Below, in pieces: positions 3,258 through 29,695 of a stretch of 61,806 nt of DNA. Both the position numbers and the translations under genes were made by a program. Where the stretch lies: positions 1 through 61,806 of IMG/VR virus record IMGVR_UViG_3300046479_000013; one strand, given 5' to 3'. Position 1 is the stretch's first letter; every line of letters begins with the position of its first letter. Under the pieces are notes generated by a model. The model worked only from the letters and a program-made list of their open reading frames with translations, made no database searches and was not told where the DNA came from. This stretch comes from a virus. Its lineage: Duplodnaviria; Caudoviricetes.

Positions 3258-3331
3258 TTTGAATCCATAAGCTCTAAACCCTGGGGTTGAGTTCTTCAAC
3301 CCCAGGGTATCGTATACGGGAGGAGAGAAAC

Positions 3332-5773: not shown

Positions 5774-5784
5774 AGGAGCCACCA

Positions 5785-7535: not shown

Positions 7536-9059
7536 TTAGCCTCCACCACCGTTGTTACCTGGCAAGGGGAAAGTGGCATTCCCGATTGCAATCCCAGAGA
7601 CCAACCCTGTGGGGGCTGTGACGTTAGGAACTTGGAATTGACCATAGTTGATGAAATCCAGGAGCATCAAGACGCCGTTGCTCATCAGAACGTAGCGATA
7701 CTGTTCATCTCCGGTATCTCCCCAATAGGAGAAAGTGAAAGAGGGGGTGAGGGTGACTAGACTTGGATCAACCAGCTGATACCAGGAACTCCCATCTCGG
7801 CTGATAAGGATTTGGTTCCCATCAGCCGTATCTCCATTTGTATCAGAAATGTAGAAGTTGTCTGAGACCATCACTCGCATGGAGTCATCACCACTTGAAA
7901 ATACAGCTTGCTGATTGATCTGACCCACCCCGATGATGGTGTTGACGGCCTGAGCTTGATATCCTGGGAAACTCTTGCTGGAAGGAAGAAGTGGATATAC
8001 GGTGGCATTGTAAGGACCGGAGGGAACCTCTCCCCCACTCATGAATGTCAAGGTTAATGCAGTATCAGGGTCTGCTGCTAAGAAGGGGCCATAGGTGTTA
8101 TTTCCACTATAGAAGTTGCGATTGACAAACACCCCAAGGGGATCATTGGTTCCGGGAACTACACCACTAGCGACTGTGGACATTTCTCCATGCTGCTGAT
8201 TCCAATTGTTATAGTCAGAAGCAAATACGATTCTTCTCTGTTGATTGGTGGTCTCTTGGACTTCGAATCCGCAATACTCTGCCCCACTACTGAACCCATT
8301 GAAATATTGGGGGTTACTCATATTGCTTGTTTGCAGATAGGGAGTCCCTGGGATGAAATGCTCAAAAGCATTCTTTCGACCATCCCAATTACAATTCTGA
8401 GGGTTGCACTGTTGTGGTGTGCTAGAGCCACCATTCCAATACCAAATATTATTGCTAGAATCCAAGAAAACGAATACACCAGAACCATAGTCATAATAGG
8501 TTTCAGGACCACCCAGGGTTGGAATTGGATCCCCAAAGCCAGGGGTCATATCTGTCCAAACCGCTGTAGGAGCAGCATCGGGGGAAGTATAGAATTTAAA
8601 ATTCCCATCCGACCCGGAGACCATCACAGACAGGCCGGGATAACCCAAACCTGTAGCTGCTCCTAAGATGGTTTCTCCAGAGACAGTGGTGACCTGGGAA
8701 CGAACAAAGGTGGTTTTGCTAGTGGGGAGGAAGATACTCTGCTCATCCTCGGAAATGATAGCACTACCATCCCGGACGGGTAAAAGACCTCCAGTCCAAG
8801 GGGTTACTCCATCTGTGTCAAACACACTGGCAACCGTTAGAGCAGAGAGATTGTTCGAAGGGGAAAGGTTGTTGAAGTAATTTTGATAGTTACTTCCCTG
8901 ATACCAAGTCCCATCGGTGGGAAGCCAACCAGCCGGAAGAGGCATGTCCTTGGGGAAGCTCATCACTGCCCCCAAGGGGAGCATACCCACTCCGGATGTG
9001 TAGGCTTGAGATAGAAGAGCTACTCTATTGAATAGCCACATGGATTCAGCACTGAACAT
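7536..9059 (-). CDS. tail fibre / tail-collar domain protein
   Basis: LPLGAVMSF...PAGWLPTDG collar-like motif; beta-rich; follows long fibre gene. Confidence 0.7.
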   Translation of the reverse strand: MFSAESMWLFNRVALLSQAYTSGVGMLPLGAVMSFPKDMPLPAGWLPTDGTWYQGSNYQNYFNNLSPSNNLSALTVASVFDTDGVTPWTGGLLPVRDGSAIISEDEQSIFLPTSKTTFVRSQVTTVSGETILGAATGLGYPGLSVMVSGSDGNFKFYTSPDAAPTAVWTDMTPGFGDPIPTLGGPETYYDYGSGVFVFLDSSNNIWYWNGGSSTPQQCNPQNCNWDGRKNAFEHFIPGTPYLQTSNMSNPQYFNGFSSGAEYCGFEVQETTNQQRRIVFASDYNNWNQQHGEMSTVASGVVPGTNDPLGVFVNRNFYSGNNTYGPFLAADPDTALTLTFMSGGEVPSGPYNATVYPLLPSSKSFPGYQAQAVNTIIGVGQINQQAVFSSGDDSMRVMVSDNFYISDTNGDTADGNQILISRDGSSWYQLVDPSLVTLTPSFTFSYWGDTGDEQYRYVLMSNGVLMLLDFINYGQFQVPNVTAPTGLVSGIAIGNATFPLPGNNGGGG

Positions 9060-9061: not shown

Positions 9062-12000
9062 TTATACTCCACCCTCTCCACCAGGATTGCTGGAGATTCC
9101 ATAATTTTGATTGAAGTAATAGTCAAACTTTACCCCCATGATGATGTTACCAACTGAGAGGTAGCTCTGGAAGAATGCCACATGCTTCTCACTCAGAGCA
9201 CCACTGGAGTTATAGACGTAGTTGATAGCATGATTCTTTCCAATGATGGTCTGCAGAATTCCATTGGCATCAAAGAGCATCTGATCACAGAAACCCATGT
9301 TGGCCAGATTGGTCATCTCACTGGGGGCTGTGTTGAACGCTGGACTAATGTTTACCACTGTGCCTGGGAAGAAAAGTCTAAACTCAATTGAGTTGCTCTC
9401 AAAAGGAACACGATAGTAACAGTATTCTGATGGACTGTAATTTGGACTGGATTTGCTCCCAATGTTTGTATCAGCGGTATCCGTTGGGTTGGGAACAATC
9501 TGATATTCCTGAGGAGTAGTGTTCATGTATGGGAAGCATTCAAGCTCGGCTACATCTCCTAAAGCTCCCTGAGCGGCTGCATGGAACAGGCGGCAAGGAA
9601 TACCATCTCGGAGGATAGTCAAGCTGGTCTCACAGATCCCATCGGGAGAATACAGAGGATTGAACACTGGAATGTTAATGGGTTGAGACCACCACAATGT
9701 CCCGGAACCATCCCCAATGAATCTCAAGACCATTCCCTCAGAAGGAGTCCAGGGCCGGATAGATCCTGAATAGTTGTTCATGGATTGCTGAATGGCATTA
9801 GCGTTATCCAAGTAGTCACCCTTGGCGTAGACGTCCCCATTGTAATTCCAAGTGGGGAAAGAGGGGCAGCAGAGGTTATTGCGATTGATGATAATCTTGA
9901 CGGTCATGGAGTTGAGACGAATCTGAACCACATAGGGTGAGCTTCCAGTGAGATACAGGGTCGGACCATTAGCCTCCTGGCGGAAGGTCAGCTGAGGATT
10001 ATCCCCAACGTTGAAGCATACAGGATCATTGATTCCACCTTCTACTGGATTGCTGGGGTAGTTGTTACTCGCTGTTGTAATCGTGTTGGGGAACAGAGGA
10101 GTGAATCCAGCGTAGGGATTGTATACAGTAATAAAGTTCTGCTCATACACGGTCATGGTCATCAGGGTGTATTGACCTGTAAGGAGATAGACAGTATCAC
10201 TCTGAGTAGGATCCATGGTTGAGCAGAGAATGTTACTAGGGACTGGGTTTGGAACCCCGGCAGGAGGTGAGGTTCCAAAGATCTCTCTGGTCGGAGCGTT
10301 TGAGCCATCATTCTTGTAACGAACGACACCCTCAAAATAGTTCTCGTAGTAACCAAGTCCTATTACAGTCCCGTCATCCGCGAAGGACAGATGATAATTT
10401 GGGGCTCCAGCAGACGGGAACACAATGGGTCCCAGGATCGGATTGATGAATCCATCATTAGGAGAGAACACACAGTATTCATCTGTACTCCCTGTGCTTC
10501 CAGTTCCTCCACGATAGGTGACAATGATGTTACCGTCAGTGTAGCAAAGATTCATGTTATTACCACCAGCAGCGGTAACGGGAGACATGGAAATCATTCT
10601 GGGTTTTGCATAGTAATTCAGAACACAGGGGAAGACAAAGGATCCAGGATTCCCAGTGGAGTTGTACCATAGGGTAGGTGGATTGTTACTGCTGTAGTTC
10701 TGTGGATTGGTCATGCCAATCATCTGATATTGAGGAAGGTTTTGATTGTAGGGATCAAAGGGGTCCGTGGAAGGGTTAGTCAGAGAAGGAACATAAGTGA
10801 TCATGCTCATGCTGACGCTATCCGCCCCATTATACTCTATGTTCGGGAAATAATTTGGCTGGTCATAGTACACACCCATGTGCTTGTGTACCTCGTGGAC
10901 TTCCCCGGTGCTCAAGGTGATTACGCAAGTGAGGTCAATATCACTGTAGATCTGTGCCACATATAGAACCCAGTTTCCCCCATTCATGACCATCTCAACA
11001 CCAAGGGAATTAACCCAGGCACCCTCGACGGTCCAGACGTAGCTAGCTCCAACGAAGGTGGGAACCTTAGCCTGATGCCAGGATTCAGCATAACCTGGTA
11101 TAGACCAATTACCTTCGGTCATAGTTGCTTCAGGAGTGTCCTTCCAAGGAGGGCTGGTTTCCCCATTGCAAGGGATAGAGATTCCAGTGTTCGGAACACC
11201 CCCTATCCAACCGGGGGTGGCAGTCTGACCTACAGGCTGGATAAAGATGTAGTTGGTATCTGGTGTGGTATCAATGGTGATACCACTCATCTTATAGCTG
11301 TAATCCCACTGCTCTGTGTAGATCTCTGTGTTGAATGCCTGACCATTTCCGTTCAGGAATTGAGGGGTATACTGAACCATATCAATATTACCATTGTTGT
11401 CATCAGAGTAGAAAACAATAGAATTGTCTACTCCACCATTGATCTGAACGGTGATGTTGATTGGATCAAGACTGGTCGAACGCAACTCATAGGTGAACTG
11501 ATTGAAGGAATAAACTCCCGGCTGAGATGCCCCGTTGCATACGGGAATCTGCCAGCTGGGATCCCAATTGGCTTGTGTGTTAGCAACGGAAACCCCGTTG
11601 ACAAGGATTTCAACCAAGTAACTAGAACCATTACCCCCACCAGTAGTGTCAATGGCTAGACCCATAGAGTCAATTCCATTCCAACTTCCGGCACCGCCAA
11701 CTGTGATCTTGAAGGTATTTCCAACCGTCAAGGGGACCAACTGGAAATTCATACTTGATTGACCCTGACCCCAACCCCCTTGCTCATCAGAGGGAGCCCA
11801 GAAATTGTCATTTTCAGTAGTCACCAGCATAGCAGAAGCTGGGGACACACCAGTGGGAGACACATAGGTGGGGATACCACCGGAGATCCCTAGAATCTGC
11901 CCTTCCAGACCAGGAGCTAGACTGACAGGAGTTCCTGCATCACCACCGATGATTAGGTCACCAGGATCGGTCATTGGGTTGGTGAGCTCAGCGCCTACAG

Positions 12001-14767
12001 GAGCGATGAACTGAGGCATGCCATTCACAACCGTGAGGATCTGCCCATTGTAACCAGCACCAATAGCCTGAGGAGCACCATTAGTCCCACCTACGATCAT
12101 CTGACCCTGAGCAAACATTGGGTTGGTCATCCCACTTGAACCAGAGCTAGGAGTTACCCATGAGAGATTGGTACCATCGGTCTCCAGGACTTTGCCGGCC
12201 TGACCCGAGACAGGGGGAAGACCATTGGATGGAGCTACCCAAGAGGCTGTGGTACCATTGGTCTCCAGGACTTTACCGGACTGACCCGTCTGAGACGGCA
12301 AAGAGAACGGGGTGACCCATGAGAGATTGGTCCCGTCGGTCTCTAGGACCTTACCGGCATTGCTGGTCTGATCCGGGAGGGTTGTTCCTCCTCCACCGGA
12401 GCCAGAAGGTGCGGTGATCCACTGGAGATGGGTCCCATCAGTGGACAACACTTTGGTGGCATTGCCGGTCTGAGAAGGAATCTCCGTGGGAATTGCAGTC
12501 CATTGAGCCACAGTGCCATTGTTGGTCAACATCATCCCACTGGTCCCAACGGACATAGTCGGAAGAGAGGTCGGGAAGGCAACCCAAGAGGCTGCAGTAC
12601 CATTGTTGGTCAATGCCATCCCGTTGGTCCCAGTGGACATTGTGGGAAGCTGGGAGGGGAGGGTGGTCCAAGCCGCTGTAGTCCCATTGCTGGCCAAGAA
12701 TTGACCATTGTTGGCAGCGATTTGAGCTGGGATGACACTGACGGTTGCCCAAGTGGCGGACGAGCCATTGGTGGAGAGGAACTTACCGGAGTTTCCAGAT
12801 TGCGCCGGGAGGGCATCAGAGGGAGGATTGACCCAGGTGGGTAGACCATTGGAGCCCACAGCGAGAAGCATACCATTGGTAGCTCCAATGGCCAGACGAT
12901 CTGGAACATTGGAAGCGTTGCCGATGAGCAAGTCGCCCTCGGTGGTGATCGGAGTGGCGGTGATCCATACACCAGTATTACCATCAGTAGACAGGATCTT
13001 CCCGTTCATACCCGTCATGTTGGGTAGGCCAGAGAAGCCGTCAGCTACGGATGCCCAAGCGGCGTTGGTGCCATCAGTTCGGAGGAAGTAACCAGTGTGC
13101 CCCGTCTGAGCAGGGAGCGCAGAGGTAGGAGCAGATACCCAAGCGGGGAGGCCATTGGTACCTACAGCCAACAATGCCCCTTCAGTACCAATACCCAATC
13201 TGGTGAAGGTGGTGGAAGTGTTACCAAGGATCAGATCTCCATAGGTCATTCCACCAGGAGCAGTGAGGCCTTGGAGCCATTCTAGATTAGTTCCATCAGT
13301 AGACAGGAACTTACCAGTCTGGCCAGTGAAGGAGGGAATGGCGGCTAGACCTGCTTCCAAGGCAGTCCATTGGGCAAAGGTGCCGTTGGTGGATAGGTAG
13401 AAACCATTCTTACCAGACTGAGCTGGGAGAGCTGAAGTGGGCGCGGATACCCAAGCCGGGAGACCATTGTCCCCCACAGCCAACAGAGTTCCAGCAGCAC
13501 CAATGGGGAATCTCACTGGGACAGCGGGGTTACCACCAGCAGGAGCGTAGATCATATCCCCAGCAGTGGTCATGGGGTTGGTCATTCCATTGAAGGTGAA
13601 GGTAGCCCAGGTGGGAGCGGAACCGTTGTTGGTCAAGAACATCCCACTAGTGCCAGAGGACACAGCAGGAAGGGCAGAGATGGCTTGCCAAGAGAGCGCA
13701 GTGCCGTTATTGGTCAGGAAGGATCCAGAGACCATAGTCGGCAATGGGCTGGGAACTGTGGACCAGGAGATCGCGGTACCATTTGTGGTCAGGAACTTAC
13801 CACCGGCTCCACCTTGAGAGGGAAGCTGATTGGGGATAGCGGCCCATGCAGCGGTTGAGCCATTGGTAGTGAGAACCATTCCGCTCTCGCCAGCGGTCTG
13901 GGTGGGAAGCACCTGAGGGAAAGAGGTCCAGGCACAAGTAGATCCGTTGGTGGTAAGGTAGTAACCGTTCTCCCCAGCGGTCATAGCCGGGAGCTCCTGG
14001 GGCAATGTAGCCCAGGACAATCCTGTACCATTGTTGGTCAGGAACTCACCAGAGACCAGGGAGGGGAAGAAGCTAAGGAAGGTGGTCCAGGAGGCATTAG
14101 AGCCATCGGTAGTCAGTAGGTCCCCATTGGCCTGACCAGCAGGGAGACCGATGAGGTTGGACCAAGCCAGGGACTGGCCATCAGGGGTGTAGAGGAATTT
14201 ACCGGCTTCACCTGCAGGACTGGGCAGAGAGTCCGGCTGGTCGAACATCTTAGCCATCACAGTCACAGTGGAAGCATTCACGGCGATGATGGTTCCAAGG
14301 ATCTGCTTTGCTTGAGAGGCTGTGGTGGGTACAGTGGTCTGGGCCGCACCAGGGACGGATGTGCTCAAATACACATACTGACCAATACTGGCTGAAGTAA
14401 AAGCCCCCAGGGGCATCTGGGTGTTGGGGCCAGCGTAGTAGACCAGAGCTTCAGCTCCAGAGGCTACAGCGGCTAGGACATATCCGTGAGCTTCTTTGGT
14501 CTTGTCGGCGGCCAATGCCTTCTGAACCATCTTGGTCCCGTTGCTGGAGAACACATTGACCCAGTCACCGGCATTGAGGGCTGTGGCGGCAATGATGTTC
14601 TCGGCATACTCGGAGACTGAAGGTGGAATGACCCCATCAGAGTTGGTCTCAACGATGCTCCCTGGTGCGGGGGCATTAGGATTGATTGCAGGCTGCTCTA
14701 CAACTAGCCTGGAAACGGGATCGAAAATCAATGGGTTGGTCAAGACTATACTCCCAGGGGTGCTCAT
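9062..14767 (-). CDS. long tail fibre / adhesin (1901 aa)
   Basis: Many LPxQxGxxGxxLxT[ND]GTxxSW and NPMTxxGDLI repeats; G/T/S/N-rich; beta-rich C-terminal region. Confidence 0.8.
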   Translation of the reverse strand: MSTPGSIVLTNPLIFDPVSRLVVEQPAINPNAPAPGSIVETNSDGVIPPSVSEYAENIIAATALNAGDWVNVFSSNGTKMVQKALAADKTKEAHGYVLAAVASGAEALVYYAGPNTQMPLGAFTSASIGQYVYLSTSVPGAAQTTVPTTASQAKQILGTIIAVNASTVTVMAKMFDQPDSLPSPAGEAGKFLYTPDGQSLAWSNLIGLPAGQANGDLLTTDGSNASWTTFLSFFPSLVSGEFLTNNGTGLSWATLPQELPAMTAGENGYYLTTNGSTCAWTSFPQVLPTQTAGESGMVLTTNGSTAAWAAIPNQLPSQGGAGGKFLTTNGTAISWSTVPSPLPTMVSGSFLTNNGTALSWQAISALPAVSSGTSGMFLTNNGSAPTWATFTFNGMTNPMTTAGDMIYAPAGGNPAVPVRFPIGAAGTLLAVGDNGLPAWVSAPTSALPAQSGKNGFYLSTNGTFAQWTALEAGLAAIPSFTGQTGKFLSTDGTNLEWLQGLTAPGGMTYGDLILGNTSTTFTRLGIGTEGALLAVGTNGLPAWVSAPTSALPAQTGHTGYFLRTDGTNAAWASVADGFSGLPNMTGMNGKILSTDGNTGVWITATPITTEGDLLIGNASNVPDRLAIGATNGMLLAVGSNGLPTWVNPPSDALPAQSGNSGKFLSTNGSSATWATVSVIPAQIAANNGQFLASNGTTAAWTTLPSQLPTMSTGTNGMALTNNGTAASWVAFPTSLPTMSVGTSGMMLTNNGTVAQWTAIPTEIPSQTGNATKVLSTDGTHLQWITAPSGSGGGGTTLPDQTSNAGKVLETDGTNLSWVTPFSLPSQTGQSGKVLETNGTTASWVAPSNGLPPVSGQAGKVLETDGTNLSWVTPSSGSSGMTNPMFAQGQMIVGGTNGAPQAIGAGYNGQILTVVNGMPQFIAPVGAELTNPMTDPGDLIIGGDAGTPVSLAPGLEGQILGISGGIPTYVSPTGVSPASAMLVTTENDNFWAPSDEQGGWGQGQSSMNFQLVPLTVGNTFKITVGGAGSWNGIDSMGLAIDTTGGGNGSSYLVEILVNGVSVANTQANWDPSWQIPVCNGASQPGVYSFNQFTYELRSTSLDPINITVQINGGVDNSIVFYSDDNNGNIDMVQYTPQFLNGNGQAFNTEIYTEQWDYSYKMSGITIDTTPDTNYIFIQPVGQTATPGWIGGVPNTGISIPCNGETSPPWKDTPEATMTEGNWSIPGYAESWHQAKVPTFVGASYVWTVEGAWVNSLGVEMVMNGGNWVLYVAQIYSDIDLTCVITLSTGEVHEVHKHMGVYYDQPNYFPNIEYNGADSVSMSMITYVPSLTNPSTDPFDPYNQNLPQYQMIGMTNPQNYSSNNPPTLWYNSTGNPGSFVFPCVLNYYAKPRMISMSPVTAAGGNNMNLCYTDGNIIVTYRGGTGSTGSTDEYCVFSPNDGFINPILGPIVFPSAGAPNYHLSFADDGTVIGLGYYENYFEGVVRYKNDGSNAPTREIFGTSPPAGVPNPVPSNILCSTMDPTQSDTVYLLTGQYTLMTMTVYEQNFITVYNPYAGFTPLFPNTITTASNNYPSNPVEGGINDPVCFNVGDNPQLTFRQEANGPTLYLTGSSPYVVQIRLNSMTVKIIINRNNLCCPSFPTWNYNGDVYAKGDYLDNANAIQQSMNNYSGSIRPWTPSEGMVLRFIGDGSGTLWWSQPINIPVFNPLYSPDGICETSLTILRDGIPCRLFHAAAQGALGDVAELECFPYMNTTPQEYQIVPNPTDTADTNIGSKSSPNYSPSEYCYYRVPFESNSIEFRLFFPGTVVNISPAFNTAPSEMTNLANMGFCDQMLFDANGILQTIIGKNHAINYVYNSSGALSEKHVAFFQSYLSVGNIIMGVKFDYYFNQNYGISSNPGGEGGV

Positions 14768-14793
14768 AGAGATCTTGGGAGTCGTGAGAGCTA

Positions 14794-15147
14794 TTAAGGT
14801 TTCGGTCTATGTAGGTATAAAACAGTGCTTCCAAACTTGGTCTTATGACATCCGAGAACTAACATATTATCCTCAAAATCTTTGAGCTGCTCGATGGTCA
14901 ACACCTTAGATCCAAATAGCATAGGCTCTGGCTCAAAGGCCCATGTGGGTCCCCCTTCCCAAGAGCAAGTGAATAAGGATCCAATGAGGCACAAACCAAA
15001 ATCCTCTACATTTTTGTTGATGAATACTTTTGAGGGATAAACCGTGGTGGAGAATCCCTCACCAAGGAAATCAATAATGCTTGAAGCGGCATCTACTAGC
15101 ACCTGAGGATCCTCAGCAGCTCTGAGTAGTTTAGCGGTTAGTTTCAT
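14794..15147 (-). CDS. KLL-leader family protein
   Basis: Starts MKLTAKLLRAAED; ATGA overlap with upstream gene. Confidence 0.75.
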   Translation of the reverse strand: MKLTAKLLRAAEDPQVLVDAASSIIDFLGEGFSTTVYPSKVFINKNVEDFGLCLIGSLFTCSWEGGPTWAFEPEPMLFGSKVLTIEQLKDFEDNMLVLGCHKTKFGSTVLYLHRPKP

Positions 15148-16796
15148 TCCCATTGCCCTCTGTAGTAGACATCCCCACCACTGGTGTAGGATTCTCTGTA
15201 ACCATTTGCAGTCATCCAATCCAGGATGACATCATACTGCTCAGCGGACCCCTTGAAATTCTTAGGAAGAGAAATGGAGTTCAAGGAAGCATCAAAGGTG
15301 AGGAGATATGAATTTGGACTCAAGAAAACCATATAAGTGGTTCCGATATTGGTTATGTTAGAAGTCAGCCCTGGAACAGGGGCATCCCAATCGATTCCCA
15401 GGGTCTGTAGCAAATCCTTTAGTTCAGAAAGATATTGATCCTTGGTGGCACGCTTAAGGAGTTTGGCCTGCATTCTAGTTTTACCCTTGGCCTCCTGCTC
15501 CGGCGTGAAGGGATATCGGTCAAAGAACACTATGGTGCTGTGCTTGTCCCCCTCCAGGACCTTCCCGCCCATGGCGTAGCCCCAATCAAGGAAATCAGCC
15601 TTGAGCTCTTGATCCCCAGGGCCTCTACCAATGCACAGAGTGTAACTCCACAGCCGATGAGTGAGCGCAGCGATCATGTTGTCCTCTTCAGAACGAATGA
15701 ATACTTGCTTATCATCTATCTTCATCTGGCTGTCTTTGATCCCTAATCCTCGGGCATATTCAGCGAAATCATCTAAGGGAACCTTGTTGAGTTCCGGAGT
15801 CTGATCAGCATTTGTCAGACGACCCAGAACCGGCTTGAAAGATCCCGCTGGCTTAGGTGTGTTCTCCCAACGCTCACGGCCACCCAGATCTCGGAAGACC
15901 ATCTTGAAGTTATGCACGGCTAGCCAGTCTTCAATAGCCTCACGATCTGAAGGTGTAAGGTTAGGTTCTACATGAACCTCGTAGTGATATGTTAGGGGAT
16001 CAGAGAGCTTGGCGGCGAAGCCCTGGAAGGTAATACGGAGGATCCTCTTCTCATCCTTATGATAATCTCTTCCTCTATACAACACGATGGCTACAGGGGC
16101 CTCTTCGGTCTTGAGGGTCTTGTCCCCAAGAGTGGTCTTGAGCTCTTGGACCATCTTACGGGTATCCGCCATTGGAGCATCAGCGTAAGATTCAGCGCAC
16201 TTGAGCAGTTTGGAGGTCAAGGTTTTCTGTGGGTGGATGAAGAAATGAAGCTCACGTGTTGCGGTAGCATCTGAAGCTCGGCCACCCTTGGACAAAGCCC
16301 AATCATACAATTCTTCGAAGACTTCACTCATACCAGATTCCTCAAGCCATTTCTTATTGCTAGACAGAACCAATGTTGCTCCTTGCCCGTATGCCACGAA
16401 GGACACCAGCTTTCGATGAAACTTATCTCTGACTTGAACCCACCCATTCTCGGAAGCGATCAAATTGTCAGGAACACCTAGATCCCGGATGAAGATATAG
16501 AAATCTCGTTCCAGATCATTGTCTGGGCGAACGAAGACATCTTCCCCTCTGTCCGTGAATTCATGATCAAGAGCCCACTGCTTAGCAGAGGCTATGATCT
16601 GTTCATCTTGAGGAATCAATCCATGATTCTCCAAGATCTCTAATCTGAATTGTTTGTTAACTCTGCTGAGTTCTAGAATTGCGTATGTGTTGTTGGAATT
16701 CTGAACACGTATACAATCCCCTACATTACGAATGCGCTTAGGAGAGACATGTAGCTCGGCTAGGAGAACCTTGAATTCTTTAATCATCTGGGCCAT
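15144..16796 (-). CDS. multidomain (polyprotein-like) member of the KLL-leader family
   Basis: Internal LTSKLLKCA and MQAKLLKRA; five DWxxxxG[FY]-type repeats. Confidence 0.75.
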   Translation of the reverse strand: MAQMIKEFKVLLAELHVSPKRIRNVGDCIRVQNSNNTYAILELSRVNKQFRLEILENHGLIPQDEQIIASAKQWALDHEFTDRGEDVFVRPDNDLERDFYIFIRDLGVPDNLIASENGWVQVRDKFHRKLVSFVAYGQGATLVLSSNKKWLEESGMSEVFEELYDWALSKGGRASDATATRELHFFIHPQKTLTSKLLKCAESYADAPMADTRKMVQELKTTLGDKTLKTEEAPVAIVLYRGRDYHKDEKRILRITFQGFAAKLSDPLTYHYEVHVEPNLTPSDREAIEDWLAVHNFKMVFRDLGGRERWENTPKPAGSFKPVLGRLTNADQTPELNKVPLDDFAEYARGLGIKDSQMKIDDKQVFIRSEEDNMIAALTHRLWSYTLCIGRGPGDQELKADFLDWGYAMGGKVLEGDKHSTIVFFDRYPFTPEQEAKGKTRMQAKLLKRATKDQYLSELKDLLQTLGIDWDAPVPGLTSNITNIGTTYMVFLSPNSYLLTFDASLNSISLPKNFKGSAEQYDVILDWMTANGYRESYTSGGDVYYRGQWE

Positions 16797-17170
16797 TATA
16801 TTCTCTTGAGCAGCTTGGCTCGTAAGGACTTCTCTGGATTCGGGATCTTCATGAGTTCCCACATAGGGTAGGATGACACAAACTTCTTACCCCCATGAGC
16901 ATAGCCCCAATCGATTACAGCCTCCAGGATCCCCTGCTCCCATTCAGAAAGAGAGAATCCCGGTTGGAAGACCAGAAGCTCATAGAAGTTGAAGAGGGTC
17001 GTTTCATTCGTAAATTTAAGAAGATAGTCTGGATCGTCACCATACACTCTATTAGTGTCTTGATGACCAGGACGTAGAACAACGATCTGACGAGAGTCAT
17101 GGCGCATGGACTTCCAGTCCAATCCAAGATCAGAAGTAATGAAAGCATCAAATTCTTTAAACGGATCCAT
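16796..17170 (-). CDS. DWxxxxG-domain protein ending in the KLL motif
   Basis: IDWGYAHGG; C-terminus SLRAKLLKRI; TAATG overlap with next gene. Confidence 0.7.
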   Translation of the reverse strand: MDPFKEFDAFITSDLGLDWKSMRHDSRQIVVLRPGHQDTNRVYGDDPDYLLKFTNETTLFNFYELLVFQPGFSLSEWEQGILEAVIDWGYAHGGKKFVSSYPMWELMKIPNPEKSLRAKLLKRI

Positions 17171-17196
17171 GAACCACCATATCTAAAAGGACATAG

Positions 17197-17221
17197 AAAA
17201 TCCCCGGACTGGGCCGGGGAT
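17197..17221 (-). terminator. intrinsic terminator after tRNA-Trp
   Basis: TCCCCGG/CCGGGGA hairpin followed by TTTT on minus strand. Confidence 0.65.
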
Positions 17222-17225
17222 ACAT

Positions 17226-17301
17226 TGGCAGGAGTGACCCGGATCGAACGGGCAACCAGGGGATTTGGAGTCCTCTGCTCTACCTTCTGAGCTTCACTCC
17301 T
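17226..17301 (-). tRNA. tRNA-Trp(CCA)
   Basis: Cloverleaf, loop CT-CCA-AA, encoded CCA. Confidence 0.92.
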
Positions 17302-17306
17302 ATGTG

Positions 17307-17477
17307 TTACGAACTAGGCATGGCCAACCAGAGAATAAAATAGACAAGCAAACCAGGACCAAAGATCAAGAAGATCAGGAAGAGGATCCGCATCACAGCT
17401 GGATCAACGTCGAAATAGTCAGCGAGTCCACCGCATACCCCGGCGATCTCTCCGTTCTTACGAACTAGTCTATCCAT
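17307..17477 (-). CDS. pspC: PspC-domain membrane protein (56 aa, below ORF-track cutoff)
   Basis: Manual translation MDRLVRKNGEIAGVCGGLADYFDVDPAVMRILF...YFILWLAMP; GAGGAG RBS. Confidence 0.88.
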   Translation of the reverse strand: MDRLVRKNGEIAGVCGGLADYFDVDPAVMRILFLIFLIFGPGLLVYFILWLAMPSS

Positions 17478-17478
17478 A

Positions 17479-18120
17479 CTAACTCCTCAAAAGGGGAAGC
17501 TCTTCCAGACAAGTCTTGCAAGCGCCACAAGCCACGTAGACACCATTATCCGTCCGTGGAGTCCGACATGACCAGGAGAGATCCCGAACCTCCTTGGGGA
17601 GGAAATCATAGATTTCACGCTTAGTGTATTTGACAACCGGGAAAAGCTTCTTCACGATTGTGAACATTGAAATCACATGACAGCTACGTTGGAACCGCCA
17701 TTCAGATACTGGATCATAGGGGGCACCGTCTGACTTGGTTCTTCCAATGGCAATGTGCTTAACATCTGGCCAGAAGGAACAGATGTTCCCGGCAGTGAAA
17801 GCTACAATGTCGGTATCCCAGGGGAACCCTCCGTTGAAGGTTGGGAAGGCACAGGTGGATTCTGAATATGACAACCTAGGATTAGGACTGTAATAGGCAA
17901 GGATATCCTCCACAGCTCTACTCTCTACCTCATCCCTACCCTCTTGGTTGAGGATGTTGATGTGATGGACATGTAGATCATATTGAGAATACTCTGGTTG
18001 ATTGAGGAGCACATGAAGCATCCCCAAGGAGTCCAACCCTCCCGACAACATCACAAGGATGGTTGGGGAGGTAGGATTCGAACCCACGGATGACGGGATC
18101 AAAACCCGTTGCCTTACCAC
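17479..18120 (-). CDS. QueC-like PP-loop ATPase (start either GTG inside tRNA-Gln or near 18050)
   Basis: SGGLDS PP-loop; WSC...CGACKTC zinc site. Confidence 0.75.
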   Translation of the reverse strand: MVRQRVLIPSSVGSNPTSPTILVMLSGGLDSLGMLHVLLNQPEYSQYDLHVHHINILNQEGRDEVESRAVEDILAYYSPNPRLSYSESTCAFPTFNGGFPWDTDIVAFTAGNICSFWPDVKHIAIGRTKSDGAPYDPVSEWRFQRSCHVISMFTIVKKLFPVVKYTKREIYDFLPKEVRDLSWSCRTPRTDNGVYVACGACKTCLEELPLLRS

Positions 18121-18134
18121 TTGGCGACTCCCCA
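18060..18134 (-). tRNA. tRNA-Gln(TTG)
   Basis: Cloverleaf, loop TT-TTG-AT, CCA. Confidence 0.92.
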
Positions 18135-18135
18135 G

Positions 18136-18564
18136 TTAAAGCTTGGCCTCGTCCTGATAGATCTGGCGTAGATGCATCAGGAGCTTGCCGAGCATATTCT
18201 TCCCCGTCCCATCCATGGTCCCCCAGTAACGATCACCCCAGGTGTTGCCTTCTTCCAGGTGAGCATCTCCGGTTAAGAGAAGATCTTTTCGTAGGTCCTC
18301 GTGCTGGTCAAACTTGGCCTGCAGGACTTCCCACATGATGTCGTCCTTGACTTCATCCCAATCAGAGCGGAGAGTGATCTTACGACCAAGCTTCTTGCTC
18401 AGACCAGCGGTGAGAATCGTGAACTCCTTAGCCCGAGCGGGTTCTTTCTGAGACTGGTATGCAGCCTCGGTGCTCGGAAAGGTCAAGCCAAAGACCGTCA
18501 CGGGAGCTTCATGAAAGTTGCTCAGGAAGCGATAGACGCCACTGAACTCTTTGATGCTGTCCAT
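18136..18564 (-). CDS. NADAR (YbiA-like) family protein
   Basis: FLSNF, TEAAYQSQK, DWDEVKDDIM, KFDQH, WGDRYWG, GKNMLGKLLM. Confidence 0.92.
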   Translation of the reverse strand: MDSIKEFSGVYRFLSNFHEAPVTVFGLTFPSTEAAYQSQKEPARAKEFTILTAGLSKKLGRKITLRSDWDEVKDDIMWEVLQAKFDQHEDLRKDLLLTGDAHLEEGNTWGDRYWGTMDGTGKNMLGKLLMHLRQIYQDEAKL

Positions 18565-18578
18565 GATGGTCTCCTTGA

Positions 18579-18656
<78 letters not shown>

Positions 18657-18822
18657 ATGATACCCCAGTTGTGCTACTCCGCTGAGGGGCCGGAGGTATT
18701 CAATCCCCTTGCGAGGACAGGCACTAGAACGTCCAAGACTATCAAGACCATACCTACTTGGCTAGGTGAGGGGCTAACCGTGAACCAAATCCCCTCGGGT
18801 CAGAGATCTAAGTTACCGGGGT

Positions 18823-19206
18823 TCATAAACCCTGGATCCCCTTGAGGAAGTCTTCATCATCTTCCAGAGCATTAGCATCCAAAGGAGAATCCACTAGTTT
18901 CGCTGTAATGGTGTCCTCTAAGGCTTCTTCATGATCCTCATTGTTCTCATAATCGAAATCTGCTTTCCATGAGACCCATTCGAACTCATGCTCTTCTACA
19001 TCTCCACCCATGGATTCAAACCCATCTAGGTAATCACCAAGGACCTTCTTCATTTCCCGCCATAATCTACGCTCAATCTCAAATGGGACTTCTGTTCTCT
19101 GCCCCATTTCCACTTTGACCAAGAAGGGTTTGAACTTTCCAGCCTTGGATCTGATTGTGTAGCCCCAGAGGGAAGCGGTGAGGAGTTTGGCTGTGAATCG
19201 GATCAT
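18823..19206 (-). CDS. KLL-leader family protein
   Basis: MIRFTAKLLTAS; acidic. Confidence 0.75.
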   Translation of the reverse strand: MIRFTAKLLTASLWGYTIRSKAGKFKPFLVKVEMGQRTEVPFEIERRLWREMKKVLGDYLDGFESMGGDVEEHEFEWVSWKADFDYENNEDHEEALEDTITAKLVDSPLDANALEDDEDFLKGIQGL

Positions 19207-19538
19207 TTGTAGATCCCCTTGATGGTGTGAAAGGTGGGGACGTAATAGGATCGCACAGCATCCTTTACACGTGTGAAATTATGAGTGACCAGCCAGTCTT
19301 CTACAGCATCCAGATAGTCTTTTGGGACAGTGTCATACACGTAGATGGTTGGCCGTTGGGCCGTTGTGTCCATGTCCTCATTGGAAACCGCCATAATCAT
19401 CTTGTTTCTAAAATGGATGGCCCTACCCCAATGCTCCCCTTGATTTCTAAACCCAAAGGTCTGTTGAAGACTCTTGGCGAGAAGCCAGACATCGTTCTTG
19501 TTGAAGGCGGCTTGTAGAAGTCTAGAGGTCAATCTCAT
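19203..19538 (-). CDS. KLL-leader family protein
   Basis: MRLTSRLLQAA; EDWLVTHNF. Confidence 0.75.
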   Translation of the reverse strand: MRLTSRLLQAAFNKNDVWLLAKSLQQTFGFRNQGEHWGRAIHFRNKMIMAVSNEDMDTTAQRPTIYVYDTVPKDYLDAVEDWLVTHNFTRVKDAVRSYYVPTFHTIKGIYK

Positions 19539-19942
19539 TTCGTATCTTCCATCACATCTATGAAGCCTTCATCGTCGTCCGGGGTCAAGTAGAAATCTAC
19601 CATCTTGTGCTTGGCCATTCCTAATGTGTAGGGTCCATCCCACTCATGGACGCCCTCTTGATAGTTCCCGTTGTAGACGGTTATAGAACATACCCAGTAG
19701 GTATGCTCAGCATCTTCCTCGGCAGCAGCCTCACCCCACATTTCGGCGTCAATCTTGGCCTTCACAATTATGGCGTAATCCACAGAGTCCTGCTCATCAC
19801 TACGCTCACTACCCACGATCTTCTTAAAACCCACAAGCTTGATGGGTGGCAGAAAAGGTGCGTAGTTCTCGTTCATGGATCGCTCCAAGGCTTCCTTGGT
19901 GATCTCTGTGGCACGCTTGAGGAGTTTAGCAGACAGTCTCAT
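19535..19942 (-). CDS. KLL-leader family protein
   Basis: MRLSAKLLKRATE; start placed downstream of tRNA. Confidence 0.75.
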   Translation of the reverse strand: MRLSAKLLKRATEITKEALERSMNENYAPFLPPIKLVGFKKIVGSERSDEQDSVDYAIIVKAKIDAEMWGEAAAEEDAEHTYWVCSITVYNGNYQEGVHEWDGPYTLGMAKHKMVDFYLTPDDDEGFIDVMEDTK

Positions 19943-19962
19943 AGTTAAGGCTGGTAAAGATT

Positions 19963-20040
19963 TGGTCGGTGTGGTTGGATTCGAACCAACGTCCTCTCGC
20001 GTCCGAGGCGAGTCGTCTGACCAGGCTGGCTTACACACCG
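19963..20040 (-). tRNA. tRNA-Pro(CGG)
   Basis: Cloverleaf, loop CT-CGG-AC, CCA. Confidence 0.85.
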
Positions 20041-20044
20041 TGAT

Positions 20045-20123
20045 TGGTCGGGATGAGAGGATTCGAACCTCCGACTTCCTGTCCCCCAGACAGGCGCTCT
20101 AGGCCAGGCTAAGCCACATCCCG
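20045..20123 (-). tRNA. tRNA-Pro(GGG)
   Basis: Cloverleaf, loop CT-GGG-GG, CCA. Confidence 0.9.
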
Positions 20124-20127
20124 ATGA

Positions 20128-20201
20128 TGGTTGGGGTTCTCCGATTCGAACGGAGGAAGGGTGGTTCAGAGCCACCTGGTTTACCACTAGCCTAAACCCC
20201 A
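20128..20201 (-). tRNA. tRNA-Gln(CTG)
   Basis: Cloverleaf, loop CT-CTG-AA, CCA. Confidence 0.9.
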
Positions 20202-20209
20202 ATTGTGAA

Positions 20210-20285
20210 TGGTGGACCGAGAGGGATTTGAACCCCCGACACCTGGATTTTCAGTCCAGTGCTCTACCCACTGAGCTATCGGTCC
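20210..20285 (-). tRNA. tRNA-Phe(GAA)
   Basis: Cloverleaf, loop CT-GAA-AA, CCA. Confidence 0.93.
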
Positions 20286-20401
20286 TTGATAAGTTGATTG
20301 TTTTGATACGTGAAATAAACTTTGCTTTTCCCTTACGTAACGGGGATAATCGTTGCGTCCGGAAAGACAGTTTGGACTCTTTACCTTACCTTGGAGCGGT
20401 T

Positions 20402-20701
20402 ATGGTAGTAGAGTTGGAGAGAAGCCAGTTTTCGACCCAGTGTGCCTGGTGCAAAAGAGTTCGCATTGGGGACAAATGGAGACCGGAGCGCAGGGGTGAG
20501 CCCTGCTACACTCATGGGATCTGCCCACATTGCATCAAGAAACTCTACCGTGAGGGCGTGAACACCAGATTCAAACTCCGAAGGGCCTATGTTGCCCATT
20601 GGGCCTCTGGGATAGTCCCAGACAACCTTCATTGCTACATCGCTGGAATTGTGATTGTATTGCGGCACATCCACCGGATCACCGGGATGTTCAAGCGTTA
20701 A
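20402..20701 (+). CDS. small zinc-binding domain protein
   Basis: CAWCKRVR...W...THGICPHC; GGAG upstream of ATG 20402. Confidence 0.65.
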   Translation: MVVELERSQFSTQCAWCKRVRIGDKWRPERRGEPCYTHGICPHCIKKLYREGVNTRFKLRRAYVAHWASGIVPDNLHCYIAGIVIVLRHIHRITGMFKR

Positions 20702-21162
20702 GCTGTCCGCTGGTTGACACAGTCCTGATATTCCACGACGTTCATCTCCATGAAGTCAGCACCCTCCATGAGGGCAGCAGAGACACGGTGGTTACCGTCC
20801 TCGATCAGGTAACGGCCAGAGGGCATGTGGATCACCTGGGGTGGAGTGATCTTAAAGACCATACCAGGGTTGTTCATGATCCCACTGAGCTTGTCCGTGA
20901 AGATGTACTCCTGATCAGATTCTACCTTGTTGAGCGGAACGTTACGGCGTTGTGAAGTGACATACTTGAGATACCCATCCGGGATAGTTTCTCGGGCCTC
21001 CATGTCCCCTTTTGAGGGGATGATCCAGGGGAAGAGCTTGGCGAGCTTGATCCGGCCTTGGTAGTCTGTGAGGGCGTCGATCTTCTCCATGAGAGCCTCA
21101 GCACCGGGGGCATCTTCTTCTAGATCAGCTCGCTTGAGTAGTTTTGAGGTTAGACTAAACAT
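20698..21162 (-). CDS. KLL-leader protein with ParB/Srx-like domain
   Basis: MFSLTSKLLKRAD; PQVI...YLIEDGNHRVSAA. Confidence 0.75.
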   Translation of the reverse strand: MFSLTSKLLKRADLEEDAPGAEALMEKIDALTDYQGRIKLAKLFPWIIPSKGDMEARETIPDGYLKYVTSQRRNVPLNKVESDQEYIFTDKLSGIMNNPGMVFKITPPQVIHMPSGRYLIEDGNHRVSAALMEGADFMEMNVVEYQDCVNQRTA

Positions 21163-21472
21163 ATTTGCACCAACAATCTGATTCCTCATCGTAGCTGTTA
21201 GCTACGAGCCAATCCTTCACATCTTCCACCACAGAGGGATCTAGATTCTGAACAACATAGAAGTAGAAGGTTGGAAGGAAGGATACCTCCTTGAAATACC
21301 CTACATACGAGCCGTTTACTGAGATCCGATATCTGCTTATCTGCGACTCATGATCGTAGGCGTCTTCAACGGAGCCTCCAATGGACTCACACAGTTCCTG
21401 AGCGTCCTTGTAGGCCGCATCATCGGAATCTTGCGTGTCCGCTCGTTTGAGTAGCTTGGCGTTAAGTCTCAT
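21155..21472 (-). CDS. KLL-leader family protein
   Basis: MRLNAKLLKRAD; KDWLVANSY. Confidence 0.75.
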   Translation of the reverse strand: MRLNAKLLKRADTQDSDDAAYKDAQELCESIGGSVEDAYDHESQISRYRISVNGSYVGYFKEVSFLPTFYFYVVQNLDPSVVEDVKDWLVANSYDEESDCWCKYV

Positions 21473-21524
21473 ACTAAGGGGAACCGAAACCCTCTATCCG
21501 GTTCCCCTATACGCCCTTGCTGAT

Positions 21525-21600
21525 TGGTGGAGCCACTGGGAGTTCAACCCAATCCTCAAGCTTGCAAAGCTAGCGTGCCACGCCTCAACACTTTGGCCCC
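21525..21600 (-). tRNA. tRNA-Ala(TGC), atypical D/T loops
   Basis: G3:U70, loop TT-TGC-AA, T-loop TTGAACT, CCA. Confidence 0.75.
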
Positions 21601-21605
21601 AGGGG

Positions 21606-21699
21606 TCTGAACGTTCTGTCTATAGGGTCTACGATCGATGCCCTATAGGTCCTTGATCTGTTCGAATTCGCCTCAAGTCAGCGCCTCGGAACATTCAGA
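21606..21699 (-). ncRNA. candidate structured RNA between the two tRNA-Ala genes
   Basis: ~12-bp closing helix enclosing CTTGA/TCAAG and CTATAGGG/CCCTATAG hairpins. Confidence 0.35.
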
Positions 21700-21700
21700 T

Positions 21701-21776
21701 TGGTGGAACTTACGGGAGTCGAACCGCTGACCTCCTGCATGCCATGCAGGCGCTCTCCCAAATGAGCTAAAGCCCC
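21701..21776 (-). tRNA. tRNA-Ala(GGC)
   Basis: G3:U70, loop AT-GGC-AT, CCA. Confidence 0.92.
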
Positions 21777-22156
21777 TATTGATTATGACGTGGAATTATT
21801 AAAGTCAAACACTTCGCTACATCGTCTGGACCCTCACCGGGGATCTGCTCTTCATCAGGAAGATCTTCCAAACGATACCCCTTGGCAGCGATCCAGTCCT
21901 GAACTAAATCGTTGATTTCAGGATCAGGAATTCCTCCAAATTTAGGATTCAACCCCACATAATGGATTTCCTCTGTTCTAGTCTTCCTGTAGTCAAAGAT
22001 CATAAAGGAGGGAGGTTGAGTTTTGAAATCCACCCTAGCCCAGTTAGGCCCGGTCCCACTTTGAATCCCGGTCCCAACATAATCAATCATGTCCCTTGCC
22101 ATATCTCTGGCATCAAGGGAAGAAGCTAGAAGGAGTTTAGCAGAGAGTCGGATCAT
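21776..22156 (-). CDS. KLL-leader family protein
   Basis: MIRLSAKLLLAS; QDWIAAKGY; GGAG RBS. Confidence 0.75.
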   Translation of the reverse strand: MIRLSAKLLLASSLDARDMARDMIDYVGTGIQSGTGPNWARVDFKTQPPSFMIFDYRKTRTEEIHYVGLNPKFGGIPDPEINDLVQDWIAAKGYRLEDLPDEEQIPGEGPDDVAKCLTLIIPRHNQ

Positions 22157-24245: not shown

Positions 24246-24560
24246 TCATATCGATCTCTGGTCTGCCGGGATGGCTTCTTCTAGCTGATGGGCCTTAGCG
24301 GATGTGAGCACCTTGACCAAGGCTAGCCGGAACGTGGAGTCATTGAGGGTCATCTGCACCCGCTGCACCACGATGGGGGCTACGATCACTGCCAGGTCTG
24401 CCATCGGGGAACTCTCCAACACGGTCACCATCTTGGTTGCCCCGTAAGGCATCATCAGGGTGGTGCGTAGCTTGGACATGTTCTTGCGCACGTAGGCGAT
24501 CATCTCTTTGACCCTGGGATCCTCAGCACGCTTGAGCAATTTAGCCATTAGGATCATCAT
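24246..24560 (-). CDS. KLL-leader family protein
   Basis: MMILMAKLLKRAED. Confidence 0.7.
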   Translation of the reverse strand: MMILMAKLLKRAEDPRVKEMIAYVRKNMSKLRTTLMMPYGATKMVTVLESSPMADLAVIVAPIVVQRVQMTLNDSTFRLALVKVLTSAKAHQLEEAIPADQRSI

Positions 24561-24903
24561 GGGACTCCGGGTTCTTTCCGGGACTGGAAATCTCTTCAGA
24601 TGATTCGATATTGAATCTTGCAATGCTAGCCAAGCAGATTTCACTACCCGGCTGGACCTCTCGACAGATGCTAGGACGGGTGGGGTAGATGGCACAGAGA
24701 CAACGCTCGCCTAGATTGCCCCGTAGTGTCACACAACGACCATTACATTGGCGCATCGCGTAGGTCTCGATGTCACCCTGCTGGAGCAGAGTCAAGTCAA
24801 TCTTAAGCACAGCATCTTGTTCTGTGACCTCGATCCACTTTGGATCTTGTTTATTTGAACAGCAGACCCCACAGGTCATGCAGTCCGGGTTAAGCTCTAA
24901 CAT
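24541..24903 (-). CDS. YkgJ-like cysteine-cluster (CxxCxxCC) protein
   Basis: CMTCGVCC...RCVTL...CAIYPTRPSICR; GAGG RBS. Confidence 0.85.
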   Translation of the reverse strand: MLELNPDCMTCGVCCSNKQDPKWIEVTEQDAVLKIDLTLLQQGDIETYAMRQCNGRCVTLRGNLGERCLCAIYPTRPSICREVQPGSEICLASIARFNIESSEEISSPGKNPESHDDPNG

Positions 24904-25330
24904 CCTTACCTCTTTGGTTGAGGAATTCTGACAAGGCTCTGTCATCCTCAGACTTGAGTAGGGAAGGGATAAGGTCAATCATGATCTTCTTCAGCCAAAC
25001 GGCGTTTACCCTCTCCACCAATAGCTGACCCTGCAACTGATTCAATTCCTCCCGGATCATGTCATGGCCCATGGTGTGTCTGAACTCAAGAGGGTAATGG
25101 GTTTCCCCCATGAGCCGTTCTTCCATGAAGAAGTGCATGTCCACGAACATCAGAATCATGGTCAAGATGTTACGGATCAAGCTCTCAGAGGCTGAGGTGG
25201 GGTTCTCCAGGTGAGCATCCAAGGCCCTACCCGCCTTGCGCAGCAGATGGCCAATCTTAGCATGGTGAGCATCAATCTTTTCAAACCCTGTAGGGCTGAA
25301 CGTGTAGGGTTTCGTTGCTGGAGTTTCCAT
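24890..25330 (-). CDS. hemerythrin-like protein
   Basis: TGFEKIDAHH, HFFMEERLM...YP...HxxxH; terminal HxxxxD motif degenerate. Confidence 0.8.
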   Translation of the reverse strand: METPATKPYTFSPTGFEKIDAHHAKIGHLLRKAGRALDAHLENPTSASESLIRNILTMILMFVDMHFFMEERLMGETHYPLEFRHTMGHDMIREELNQLQGQLLVERVNAVWLKKIMIDLIPSLLKSEDDRALSEFLNQRGKDVRA

Positions 25331-25353
25331 AGGCTCTTCTTGTTGTATCTAGA

Positions 25354-26384: not shown

Positions 26385-26695
26385 ACTGTCTTCTCAAATG
26401 TTAATCCATTATGTTGAAACCCGATTGAGATGAGAAAATCTGTTAGATCTTCGAGTAGGAGCTCATTGGTGGTATAGTTCTTATTGATATCCACCTTGAG
26501 TACATTATTGAGATGAGTTATGTAGGCGAGGACCTTCATGCCCTCCATGATGCAAGCGTGTACGGAATCCCGACCGTTGTGCTTGATTCTGAACATTCCA
26601 TCAGGATCAAACTCCTGAAGGAACTGAGTTATCTCCGTGGTCTCTGGAGCGTTGACCACGGCTGTCTTGAGGAGCTTGGCTGTGAGGCTTACCAT
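26381..26695 (-). CDS. KLL-leader family protein
   Basis: MVSLTAKLLKTA; TDFLISIGF. Confidence 0.75.
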   Translation of the reverse strand: MVSLTAKLLKTAVVNAPETTEITQFLQEFDPDGMFRIKHNGRDSVHACIMEGMKVLAYITHLNNVLKVDINKNYTTNELLLEDLTDFLISIGFQHNGLTFEKTV

Positions 26696-29678: not shown

Positions 29679-29695
29679 AGAGGCTCCACATGAAT

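Follow-up and report, generated by a model that had tools for sequence, protein, structure and literature searches.

A five-domain open reading frame in a peat phage: a case for tandem fusion within an expanded leader gene family

The targeting peptide of T4-type phages is about 10-20 residues long, has at its end an [LI]-x-E site that the gp21-type head protease cuts, and in T4 is acidic. In PMC3012670 the T4 capsid targeting sequence is described as common to the diverse internal proteins IPI-III, and in PMC10052503 the propeptides of giant-phage head and ejection proteins (SPN3US gp245, phiKZ) are described as cut after A-x-E. Short N-terminal signals for ClpX include T-N-T-A-K-I-L-N-F-G-R of lambda O and S-T-A-K-L-V-K-S-K-A-T of Dps, as given in PMC8138137 and PMC12723719, and Table 2 of PMC9775585 gives as examples of N-motif-2 IscR (M-R-L-T-S-5-V) and M-K-L-P-I-5-A, with IscS and OmpA in the class. 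Here we describe the analysis of a 61,806-nucleotide (nt) stretch of viral DNA (positions 1 to 61,806 of IMG/VR record IMGVR_UViG_3300046479_000013, in what follows the window), a contig from a peat phage, uncultivated and rich in tRNA genes; CheckV rated the contig as 35% complete. The subject is a minus-strand open reading frame (ORF) for a protein of 550 amino acids (aa), which on balance we lean towards reading as five small domains fused head to tail, members of one gene family that is greatly expanded, is without known relatives and is marked by a short N-terminal leader peptide (Table 1).

The frame opens at a GTG (572 aa, 15144..16862, minus strand) and an ATG at 16796 gives the 550-aa product. 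It holds five domains of approximately 95-130 aa with one Asp-Trp (DW)-type helix apiece, the helix motifs beginning at residues 73, 165, 290, 404 and 526. All five motifs had been read in an earlier note on this DNA, which took them as the domain ends; this needs correcting, as some 15-35 residues, predicted to form two strands, come after each motif. Two strong internal leader copies (core form at strong copies, x-L-T-[AS]-K-L-L-K-x-A) and one weaker copy were located at domain junctions where that note had placed them, so that a good leader motif stands at two of the four internal junctions, or at three of five when the junction with the ORF immediately upstream (D0) is counted. D0 was likewise found to end in a leader copy, S-L-R-A-K-L-L-K-R-I, followed by a TAA that shares its final A with the next ATG (TAATG). 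Because this leader is read in the D0 frame, the proposal of a single longer polyprotein broken in two at 16796 is plausible. Programmed -1 or +1 frameshifting at the TAATG was considered and rejected, since no slippery site was seen by eye in the junction sequence.

The leader itself consists of 9-12 N-terminal residues with the consensus M-(R/K)-(L/F)-T-(A/S)-(K/R)-L-L-K-x-A, is basic at positions 2, 6, 9 and 10, has leucines at positions 3, 7 and 8, and is predicted to be helical. At least 23 genes in the window begin with it (22 by peptide regular expression plus 43534..43953 by eye), two of them on the plus strand, and 43943..44338, the start of which is uncertain, would be the 24th. In a crude greedy ORF count, which is not a gene prediction, 21 of 86 ORFs (about 1 in 4) carried the leader flag. 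The regular expression gave 24 matches, namely 22 gene starts (one counted twice) and the internal copy at domain 5, every one of which preceded at least 103 open codons, while 30 shuffled sequences gave 0-3 matches. At the DNA level a back-translated M-R-L-x-A-K-L-L-K-x-A pattern matched four times in the window versus none in 100 dinucleotide-preserving shuffles, and a looser pattern matched 18 times on the minus strand and not at all on the plus strand (reversed control, 1 and 0). The leader codons differed synonymously between copies and therefore the conservation is at the peptide level, not that of a DNA repeat.

A usual member of the family is 100-150 aa long. Its leader is followed by a short run of acidic residues and a helix, then by a variable three- to four-stranded sheet, the conserved D-W-L-x-x-N-G-F helix and two strands. 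Counts out of 30 leader genes, here and below, combine those of the window with those of a second contig, G001. At least two Asp or Glu residues lie within six residues after the leader in 17 of the 30, and the DW helix is also present in about 17 (regular expression). The leader also starts proteins that lack this helix (a ParB-like protein, a paralogue pair with another domain and several proteins without known relatives); being the same on a few unrelated payloads, it is therefore a portable N-terminal tag. By eye no common motif was seen in the regions upstream of 25 starts (the 23 leader genes plus the starts of D0 and the long ORF), and sigma-70-like promoters and terminators in the window were not above shuffles. 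The T4 late-promoter word TATAAATA was tried and set aside (2 matches versus 0.33 expected, neither positioned before a leader gene).

A hidden Markov model (HMM) built from 11 leader-stripped single-domain proteins matched the long ORF with an expect value (E) of 8e-9 and a second fused ORF (38020..39126) with E 2.1e-14 and three domain matches; within the long ORF only domain 3 was individually significant with this leaderless model (independent E 0.0024). Leader-stripped Smith-Waterman scores reached 53-75, versus a shuffled mean of 25.7 (standard deviation 4.6, maximum 46). Together, the leaderless HMM and Smith-Waterman matches indicate a family homology which is independent of the leader. 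Domain 1 is the weak point, with a best leader-stripped score of 42 that falls below the null maximum of 46. Domain 2 scored 56 to domain 4, tied with 56 to a G001 protein, and domain 4 scored 53 to D0; D0 and domains 2 and 4 make up a 'GG' subtype, with mutual best matches of 53-56, and fell in one clade (Shimodaira-Hasegawa-like approximate likelihood ratio test, SH-aLRT, 80) of an otherwise saturated tree. The closest relative of domain 3 in the window is the free-standing gene 19203..19538, with which it aligned over its full length, leader included (residues 193-300 versus residues 3-91; BLASTP E 5e-6 in a small database; Smith-Waterman 75). Domain 5 (residues 441-535) matched gene 21155..21472 (BLASTP E 3e-3) and scored 57 to gene 21776..22156.

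Single leader genes are the rule and multi-domain ORFs the exceptions, and the internal leaders are variously strong, decayed or absent, all of which supports a fusion of single-domain leader genes, one of two readings put forward in the earlier note. With D0/domain 1 counted, the two fused ORFs have seven junctions: at three of them the leader is strong, at two it is decayed and at two it is missing. In the second fused ORF the first junction has the decayed form F-S-K-L-K-L-L-T-H-P and the second has no leader. The single-gene relative of domain 3, the existence of the second fused ORF and the split arrangement in G001 point the same way. The internal copies would then be former N-termini of genes which became joined to their upstream neighbours; they would be dispensable at some boundaries and may be unmasked only through internal initiation or cleavage. 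We infer that the change went by fusion and not by splitting. If so, the fused ORFs show tandem paralogues of large phages merging into multi-domain proteins.

G001 was the one other stretch in IMG/VR which contained the leader DNA pattern. It is a contig of 63.8 kb (CheckV, 22% complete) that has no nucleotide similarity to the window and shares six ORF-pair BLASTP matches with it. Four of its seven leader genes stand in tandem at one contig end as separate single-domain genes, all with both leader and DW helix, so that the comparison of fused and split versions in related phages proposed earlier found the split version here. Window gene 21155..21472 scored 75 (Smith-Waterman) against one of these contig-end genes, and this cross-phage pair indicates that the family diversified before the two phages diverged.

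Beyond these two contigs the leader gene set was not found in the five collections searched. The 550-aa ORF matched only itself, both with phmmer among 1.84 billion representatives and in a word-index search (7,998 scored, from an index of 5.8 billion). Profile A2 gave four matches among 460 candidates, all from the window contig or G001, and against longer proteins it found only the long ORF among 7,999. No related locus was confirmed in IMG/VR searches with either the long ORF or its QueC-like neighbour. The leader pattern occurred in 46 stretches of metagenome contigs, as a single match each, many running into stops and none with a second leader, and in 38 stretches of the genomes of 185,579 species without any cluster; of the two species-genome loci with more than one regular-expression match, one was a single site that had been counted twice and the other was unrelated. 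Such isolated matches look like chance. In Synechococcus phage B23, the best helicase match (39%), the leader pattern was not above control, and a megablast search with 14000..22000 as query gave only tRNA matches in 50,697 phage records, with no close cultured relative.

No Pfam or PHROG family was found for the 550-aa ORF, nor any protease domain within it. The family members were without Pfam or PHROG families as well, save for a borderline SAM_3 match and a weak ParB-like match, and the leader domain family is thus undescribed in these two resources. The SAM_3 match (PF18016) was confined to gene 31982..33106, at 22.8 bits versus a cut-off of 22.6, and fell on the DW helix (profile positions 11-35 of 65). 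The ParB-like match (PHROG, E 2.9e-4) was to gene 20698..21162; the protein has a D-G-N-H-R motif and no Pfam match.

AlphaFold2 prediction of the 550-aa ORF without an alignment gave a mean predicted local distance difference test (pLDDT) of 48.4 and a predicted template modelling score (pTM) of 0.27, with moderate confidence only in domains 4 and 5 (domain 4 block means of 72-85 at residues 341-380 and 58-62 at 381-410). Even in this poor model the predicted secondary structure repeats the family pattern. The strong leaders were modelled as helices at residues 192-202 and within 432-447 (pLDDT 33-35 for the domain 4/5 copy), in low-pLDDT linkers that run from the final strand of a domain to the opening helix of the following one. 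The structure prediction suggested in the earlier note thus put the leaders in linkers and none inside a folded core, in models of low confidence. The free-standing gene 19203..19538, folded with a 10-row alignment, gave pLDDT 67.1 (under 50 in the leader) and pTM 0.60. Fold searches with the family domain returned nothing above background. The best Foldseek match was YjbR (2fki; E 0.13, template modelling (TM) score 0.43), the best VIA-align match (Z 6.1, root mean square deviation 3.1, 74 residues aligned) was under the usual background, and the Atlas neighbours TfoX_N, YjbR and YbjN had TM scores of about 0.5; MotA C-terminal 'double-wing'-like, YjbR and TfoX_N folds gave no significant structural match over the domain in these searches. 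A Protein Data Bank sequence-profile match (best E 0.026) was not considered credible.

As to what the leader may do, our best single guess, a tentative one, is a ClpX-type N-terminal degron or tether, because the leader matches published N-motif-1 signals and, at its start, the IscR example of N-motif-2. The N-motif-1 consensus of Flynn et al. in 2003 is said to run polar-T/hydrophobic-hydrophobic-basic-hydrophobic near the N-terminus. As a motif match the leader agrees with it: T-[AS]-[KR]-[LIV] lies in the first nine residues of 16 of the 30 leader genes, and most others have x-[AS]-[KR]-L-L. The G001 form M-L-T-A-K-L-L is in the same register as (M)-S-T-A-K-L-V-K of Dps, the window form M-R-L-T-A-K-L-L in the same register as M-T-N-T-A-K-I-L of lambda O, and the leader start M-R-L-T-S is identical in IscR. 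Like these signals the leader is short, unstructured and at the extreme N-terminus, and lambda O is a phage protein made short-lived through its ClpX signal. Unlike them, the leader tags about one quarter of the window ORFs, is longer and more conserved, continues as L-L-K-x-A followed by acidic residues, and has internal copies that are without counterpart there. If it is a ClpXP signal, it would mean a genome-wide use of host proteolysis in timing or aiming phage accessory proteins. To our knowledge, the examples of such use known so far are mainly single ones, lambda O among them.

A protease that bears on this question is encoded by G001 (53801..54652, minus strand), a ClpP-family protein (PF00574, 113.9 bits; PHROG 'head maturation protease', E 2e-31). 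It is divergent, scoring below every NCBIfam cut-off, and its gene has helicase, UvsX-like and exonuclease genes as neighbours rather than a head module. The protein has an N-terminal extension and a long Lys/Pro/Glu-rich tail. No ClpP family was found in the window, the contig being a fragment.

Several observations weigh against a fusion of domains that carry a ClpX-type leader. The tree of the 26 domains was saturated, no branch reaching 95, and so does not resolve the order of events, and both structure models are weak (pLDDT 48 and 67). The three strong internal leaders are 50-60% identical by our own count, while the domains around them share only 8-27% (MAFFT); with leaders better kept than domains, neutral relics would need recent fusions. 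An ATG has been retained in only one of these three. All three strong copies stand where a 'GG'-type domain passes into an N-F-type domain, so that the array reads (GG)-leader-(NF) three times over, and with this period of two the leader could have a role inside the protein. Recent fusions, ongoing use through internal initiation, and cut sites are the options for the strong copies. As for the degron, strict N-motif-2 fits one of the 30 leaders (12 if T/S is allowed, as in IscR), the function is one we infer from a short motif alone, and the G001 protease could serve degradation or cleavage alike.

The rival that fares best, and which we nevertheless hold to be fairly unlikely, is a true polyprotein or cargo precursor in which the leader is a targeting and cleavage signal for a head maturation or ClpP-family phage protease. 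Products of the type D1-D2, D3(-D4) and D5 would result, in the manner in which T4/phiKZ-type phages process their head-packaged proteins. The placing of the modelled leaders in linkers, outside the domain cores, would suit such cutting, as would the better conservation of the strong copies relative to the flanking domains and the position of the array directly upstream of a tail-fibre-like gene. The payloads are small and highly variable and lie among tRNA genes, and the T4 internal proteins are likewise diverse, with only a targeting sequence in common (PMC3012670). The head-maturation match of the G001 protease is in favour too, while its place amid replication genes and its sub-threshold NCBIfam scores are not. 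No capsid genes or T4-type head protease were seen on either contig, at the completeness given above. The other reading offered in the earlier note, a protease site which releases single domains, found no direct support: two of four internal junctions (two of five with D0/domain 1) are without a good site, the ORF brings no protease domain and the residues after the leader show no conserved acidic cut motif. The leader may nevertheless be cut.

Comparison with the processed systems gives a similar picture. Like the T4 targeting sequence, the leader is one short conserved N-terminal peptide on diverse, fast-evolving small phage proteins; unlike it, the leader is basic and lacks a conserved [LI]-x-E site, which occurs in the first 25 residues of 5 of the 30 leader genes, at positions 12-22. 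Paralogue families in a large phage are a trait shared with SPN3US/phiKZ, whose family members can be cut at several internal sites (PMC10052503), but [SAG]-x-E was found in the first 25 residues of only 9 of the 30, at inconsistent positions, and no homology to those proteins turned up in PHROGs. As in classical viral polyproteins, one ORF holds several domain-sized units with a peptide recurring at some junctions. Those have a cut site at every boundary and a cognate protease, whereas the long ORF has no protease domain and lacks the motif at two of its four internal junctions, and the same units are separate genes in the same genome and in G001. Were the leader a loading-and-cleavage tag, it would mark a capsid-cargo system whose signal differs from those of T4 and phiKZ.

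Quite unlikely, in our estimate, is a set of nested products, in which internal initiation at the TTG of the domain 3 leader and the ATG of the domain 5 leader would give D3-D5 and D5. The leaders would be N-terminal on these products and the internal copies would stay under selection. In both cases the start codon is at leader position 3, and free-standing genes with M at this position exist (M-K-A-R-L-L in G001; M-K-N-P-L-L, starting at 58470). The domain 5 ATG is preceded, at a distance of 10-22 nt, by a purine-rich stretch, and the window genes are mostly without strong ribosome-binding sites and often ATGA-coupled. On the other hand, no ribosome-binding-like sequence precedes the domain 3 TTG, and the remaining strong copy, ahead of domain 1, reads TTA at position 3 and is in the other frame.

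We give an equally small chance to the leader being a structural or docking helix of the family and no sorting or degradation signal; it could, for instance, be amphipathic and have a partner, a membrane or another DW domain as its target, with the internal copies as part of the repeat. Its predicted helicity, its patterned basic residues and leucines, the DW helix in most leader genes and the period of two seen for the strong copies would all suit a docking helix. D0, domain 1 and domain 2, however, show the DW fold pattern without a preceding leader, the leader also occurs on proteins lacking the DW helix, and its pLDDT is below 50.

A bolder extension of the ClpX reading, which we regard as improbable and somewhat more so than the two preceding ones, is that dozens of hypervariable binder domains act as phage 'degraders', dragging host proteins or themselves to ClpXP or to a phage ClpP-family protease. 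Every domain would have its own host target, such as a defence factor, and would take this target, or itself on a timer, to the protease; the fused ORFs would be multivalent forms, with internal tags exposed after a first cut or by internal initiation.

The region was contained in runs from 12 peat and 2 lake-water metagenomes, of which the four with the largest shares, all peat, were compared; X1 may be the source sample. No indel was found in any of the four across the region, an indel at 16796 having been the check proposed earlier, and an X2 contig (16690..16840) bridges the D0/domain 1 TAATG with identical sequence. The domain 4/5 leader is bridged unchanged by contigs of X2 and X3. The sequence is real, because separate contigs cross two junctions without change. 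An assembly error, or a pseudogene decaying through recent frameshifts in a dispensable array, is therefore very improbable, for although the contig is a metagenome assembly and the D0/domain 1 junction, with its leader in the upstream frame, is frameshift-like, there are 550 open codons, identical contigs from other samples over two junctions and a second, independent fused ORF on the opposite strand. At window position 16162 a G>A change was seen in X4 (depth 2.2, a single low-depth contig), which would alter Thr212 right after the domain 3 leader.

Table 1. Coordinates of the long ORF, its parts and other features of the window (complement strand given as -).
Feature	Position	Strand	Remark
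550-aa five-domain ORF	15147..16796	-	stop at 15144..15146 overlaps next ATG as ATGA
D0, single 'GG'-type domain, 124 aa, without N-terminal leader	16796..17170	-	C-terminal leader copy at 16799..16828
Domain 1, residues 1-93, Q-W-A-L-D-H-E-F helix	16518..16796	-	own frame without leader
Domain 2, residues 94-191, 'GG' subtype (D-W-x4-G-G)	16224..16517	-	no preceding leader
Strong internal leader T-L-T-S-K-L-L-K-C-A, domain 2/3 junction, residues 192-201	16194..16223	-	TTG at leader position 3
Domain 3 body, residues 202-322, N-F subtype	15831..16193	-	
Decayed leader V-L-G-R-L-T-N-A, domain 3/4 junction, residues 323-330	15807..15830	-	
Domain 4 body, 'GG' subtype	15477..15806	-	
Strong internal leader R-M-Q-A-K-L-L-K-R-A, domain 4/5 junction, residues 441-450	15447..15476	-	ATG retained at leader position 3
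Domain 5 body, N-G-Y subtype	15147..15446	-	
D6, separate 117-aa leader gene immediately downstream of the long ORF	14794..15147	-	leaderless HMM match, but D6 is in the training set
Six leader genes among tRNA genes	18823..22156	-	18823..19206, 19203..19538, 19535..19942, 20698..21162, 21155..21472, 21776..22156
Five leader genes	24246..27774	-	24246..24560, 25354..25917, 25914..26384, 26381..26695, 26689..27774 (361 aa)
Four leader genes	31629..35522	-	31629..31985, 31982..33106 (374 aa, DW helix at end), 34034..34768, 34752..35522
416-aa leader gene, payload without known relatives	36770..38020	+	
Second fused ORF	38020..39126	+	N-terminal leader, three DW domains
Leader genes	43130..45063	-	43130..43537, 43534..43953, 43943..44338 (start uncertain), 44686..45063
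203-aa leader gene, payload not matched to a known family	53068..53679	-	
118-aa gene, leader variant M-K-N-P-L-L-K-K-A	58114..58470	-	DW-type helix
tRNA nucleotidyltransferase (CCA-adding enzyme), rIIA, rIIB	1902..7110	+	
Nicotinamide adenine dinucleotide salvage: nicotinamide phosphoribosyltransferase, NadR-like adenylyltransferase/Nudix gene	54238..56764	-	

Among the other leader genes, 34034..34768 and 34752..35522 are paralogues with a non-DW payload, and together with 31982..33106 (all minus strand) they have in common a further domain, likewise undescribed, in which a Y-F-G-x-C-Y ... R-F motif is found. Thirty tRNA genes, all on the minus strand, are interspersed with leader genes between 17226 and 52118. 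One of them (42475..42550) has a CTA anticodon and would read amber codons; three leader genes (21155, 34034 and 44686) stop with TAG.

Genes seen elsewhere in the window include a QueC-like gene, a primase, a helicase and tail-fibre-like genes. D6 is followed by a tail-fibre-like gene for a 1901-aa protein (9062..14767, minus strand), in which dozens of short G-x-x-L-x-T-x-G-x-x-x-x-W repeats were seen by eye and no Pfam family was found; the next gene, 7536..9059, gave weak tail-fibre and tail-collar matches. A terminator-like hairpin with a T-run lies at 17200..17221 (minus strand), between tRNA-Trp and the start of D0, and the stretch from D0 to the tail-fibre gene may be a transcription unit of its own. 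Finally, long overlapping ORFs occur at 29694..31358 (plus strand) and 29730..31301 (minus strand), of which only the minus-strand one has a family match (PHROG 'RNA-binding protein', E 4.7e-87).

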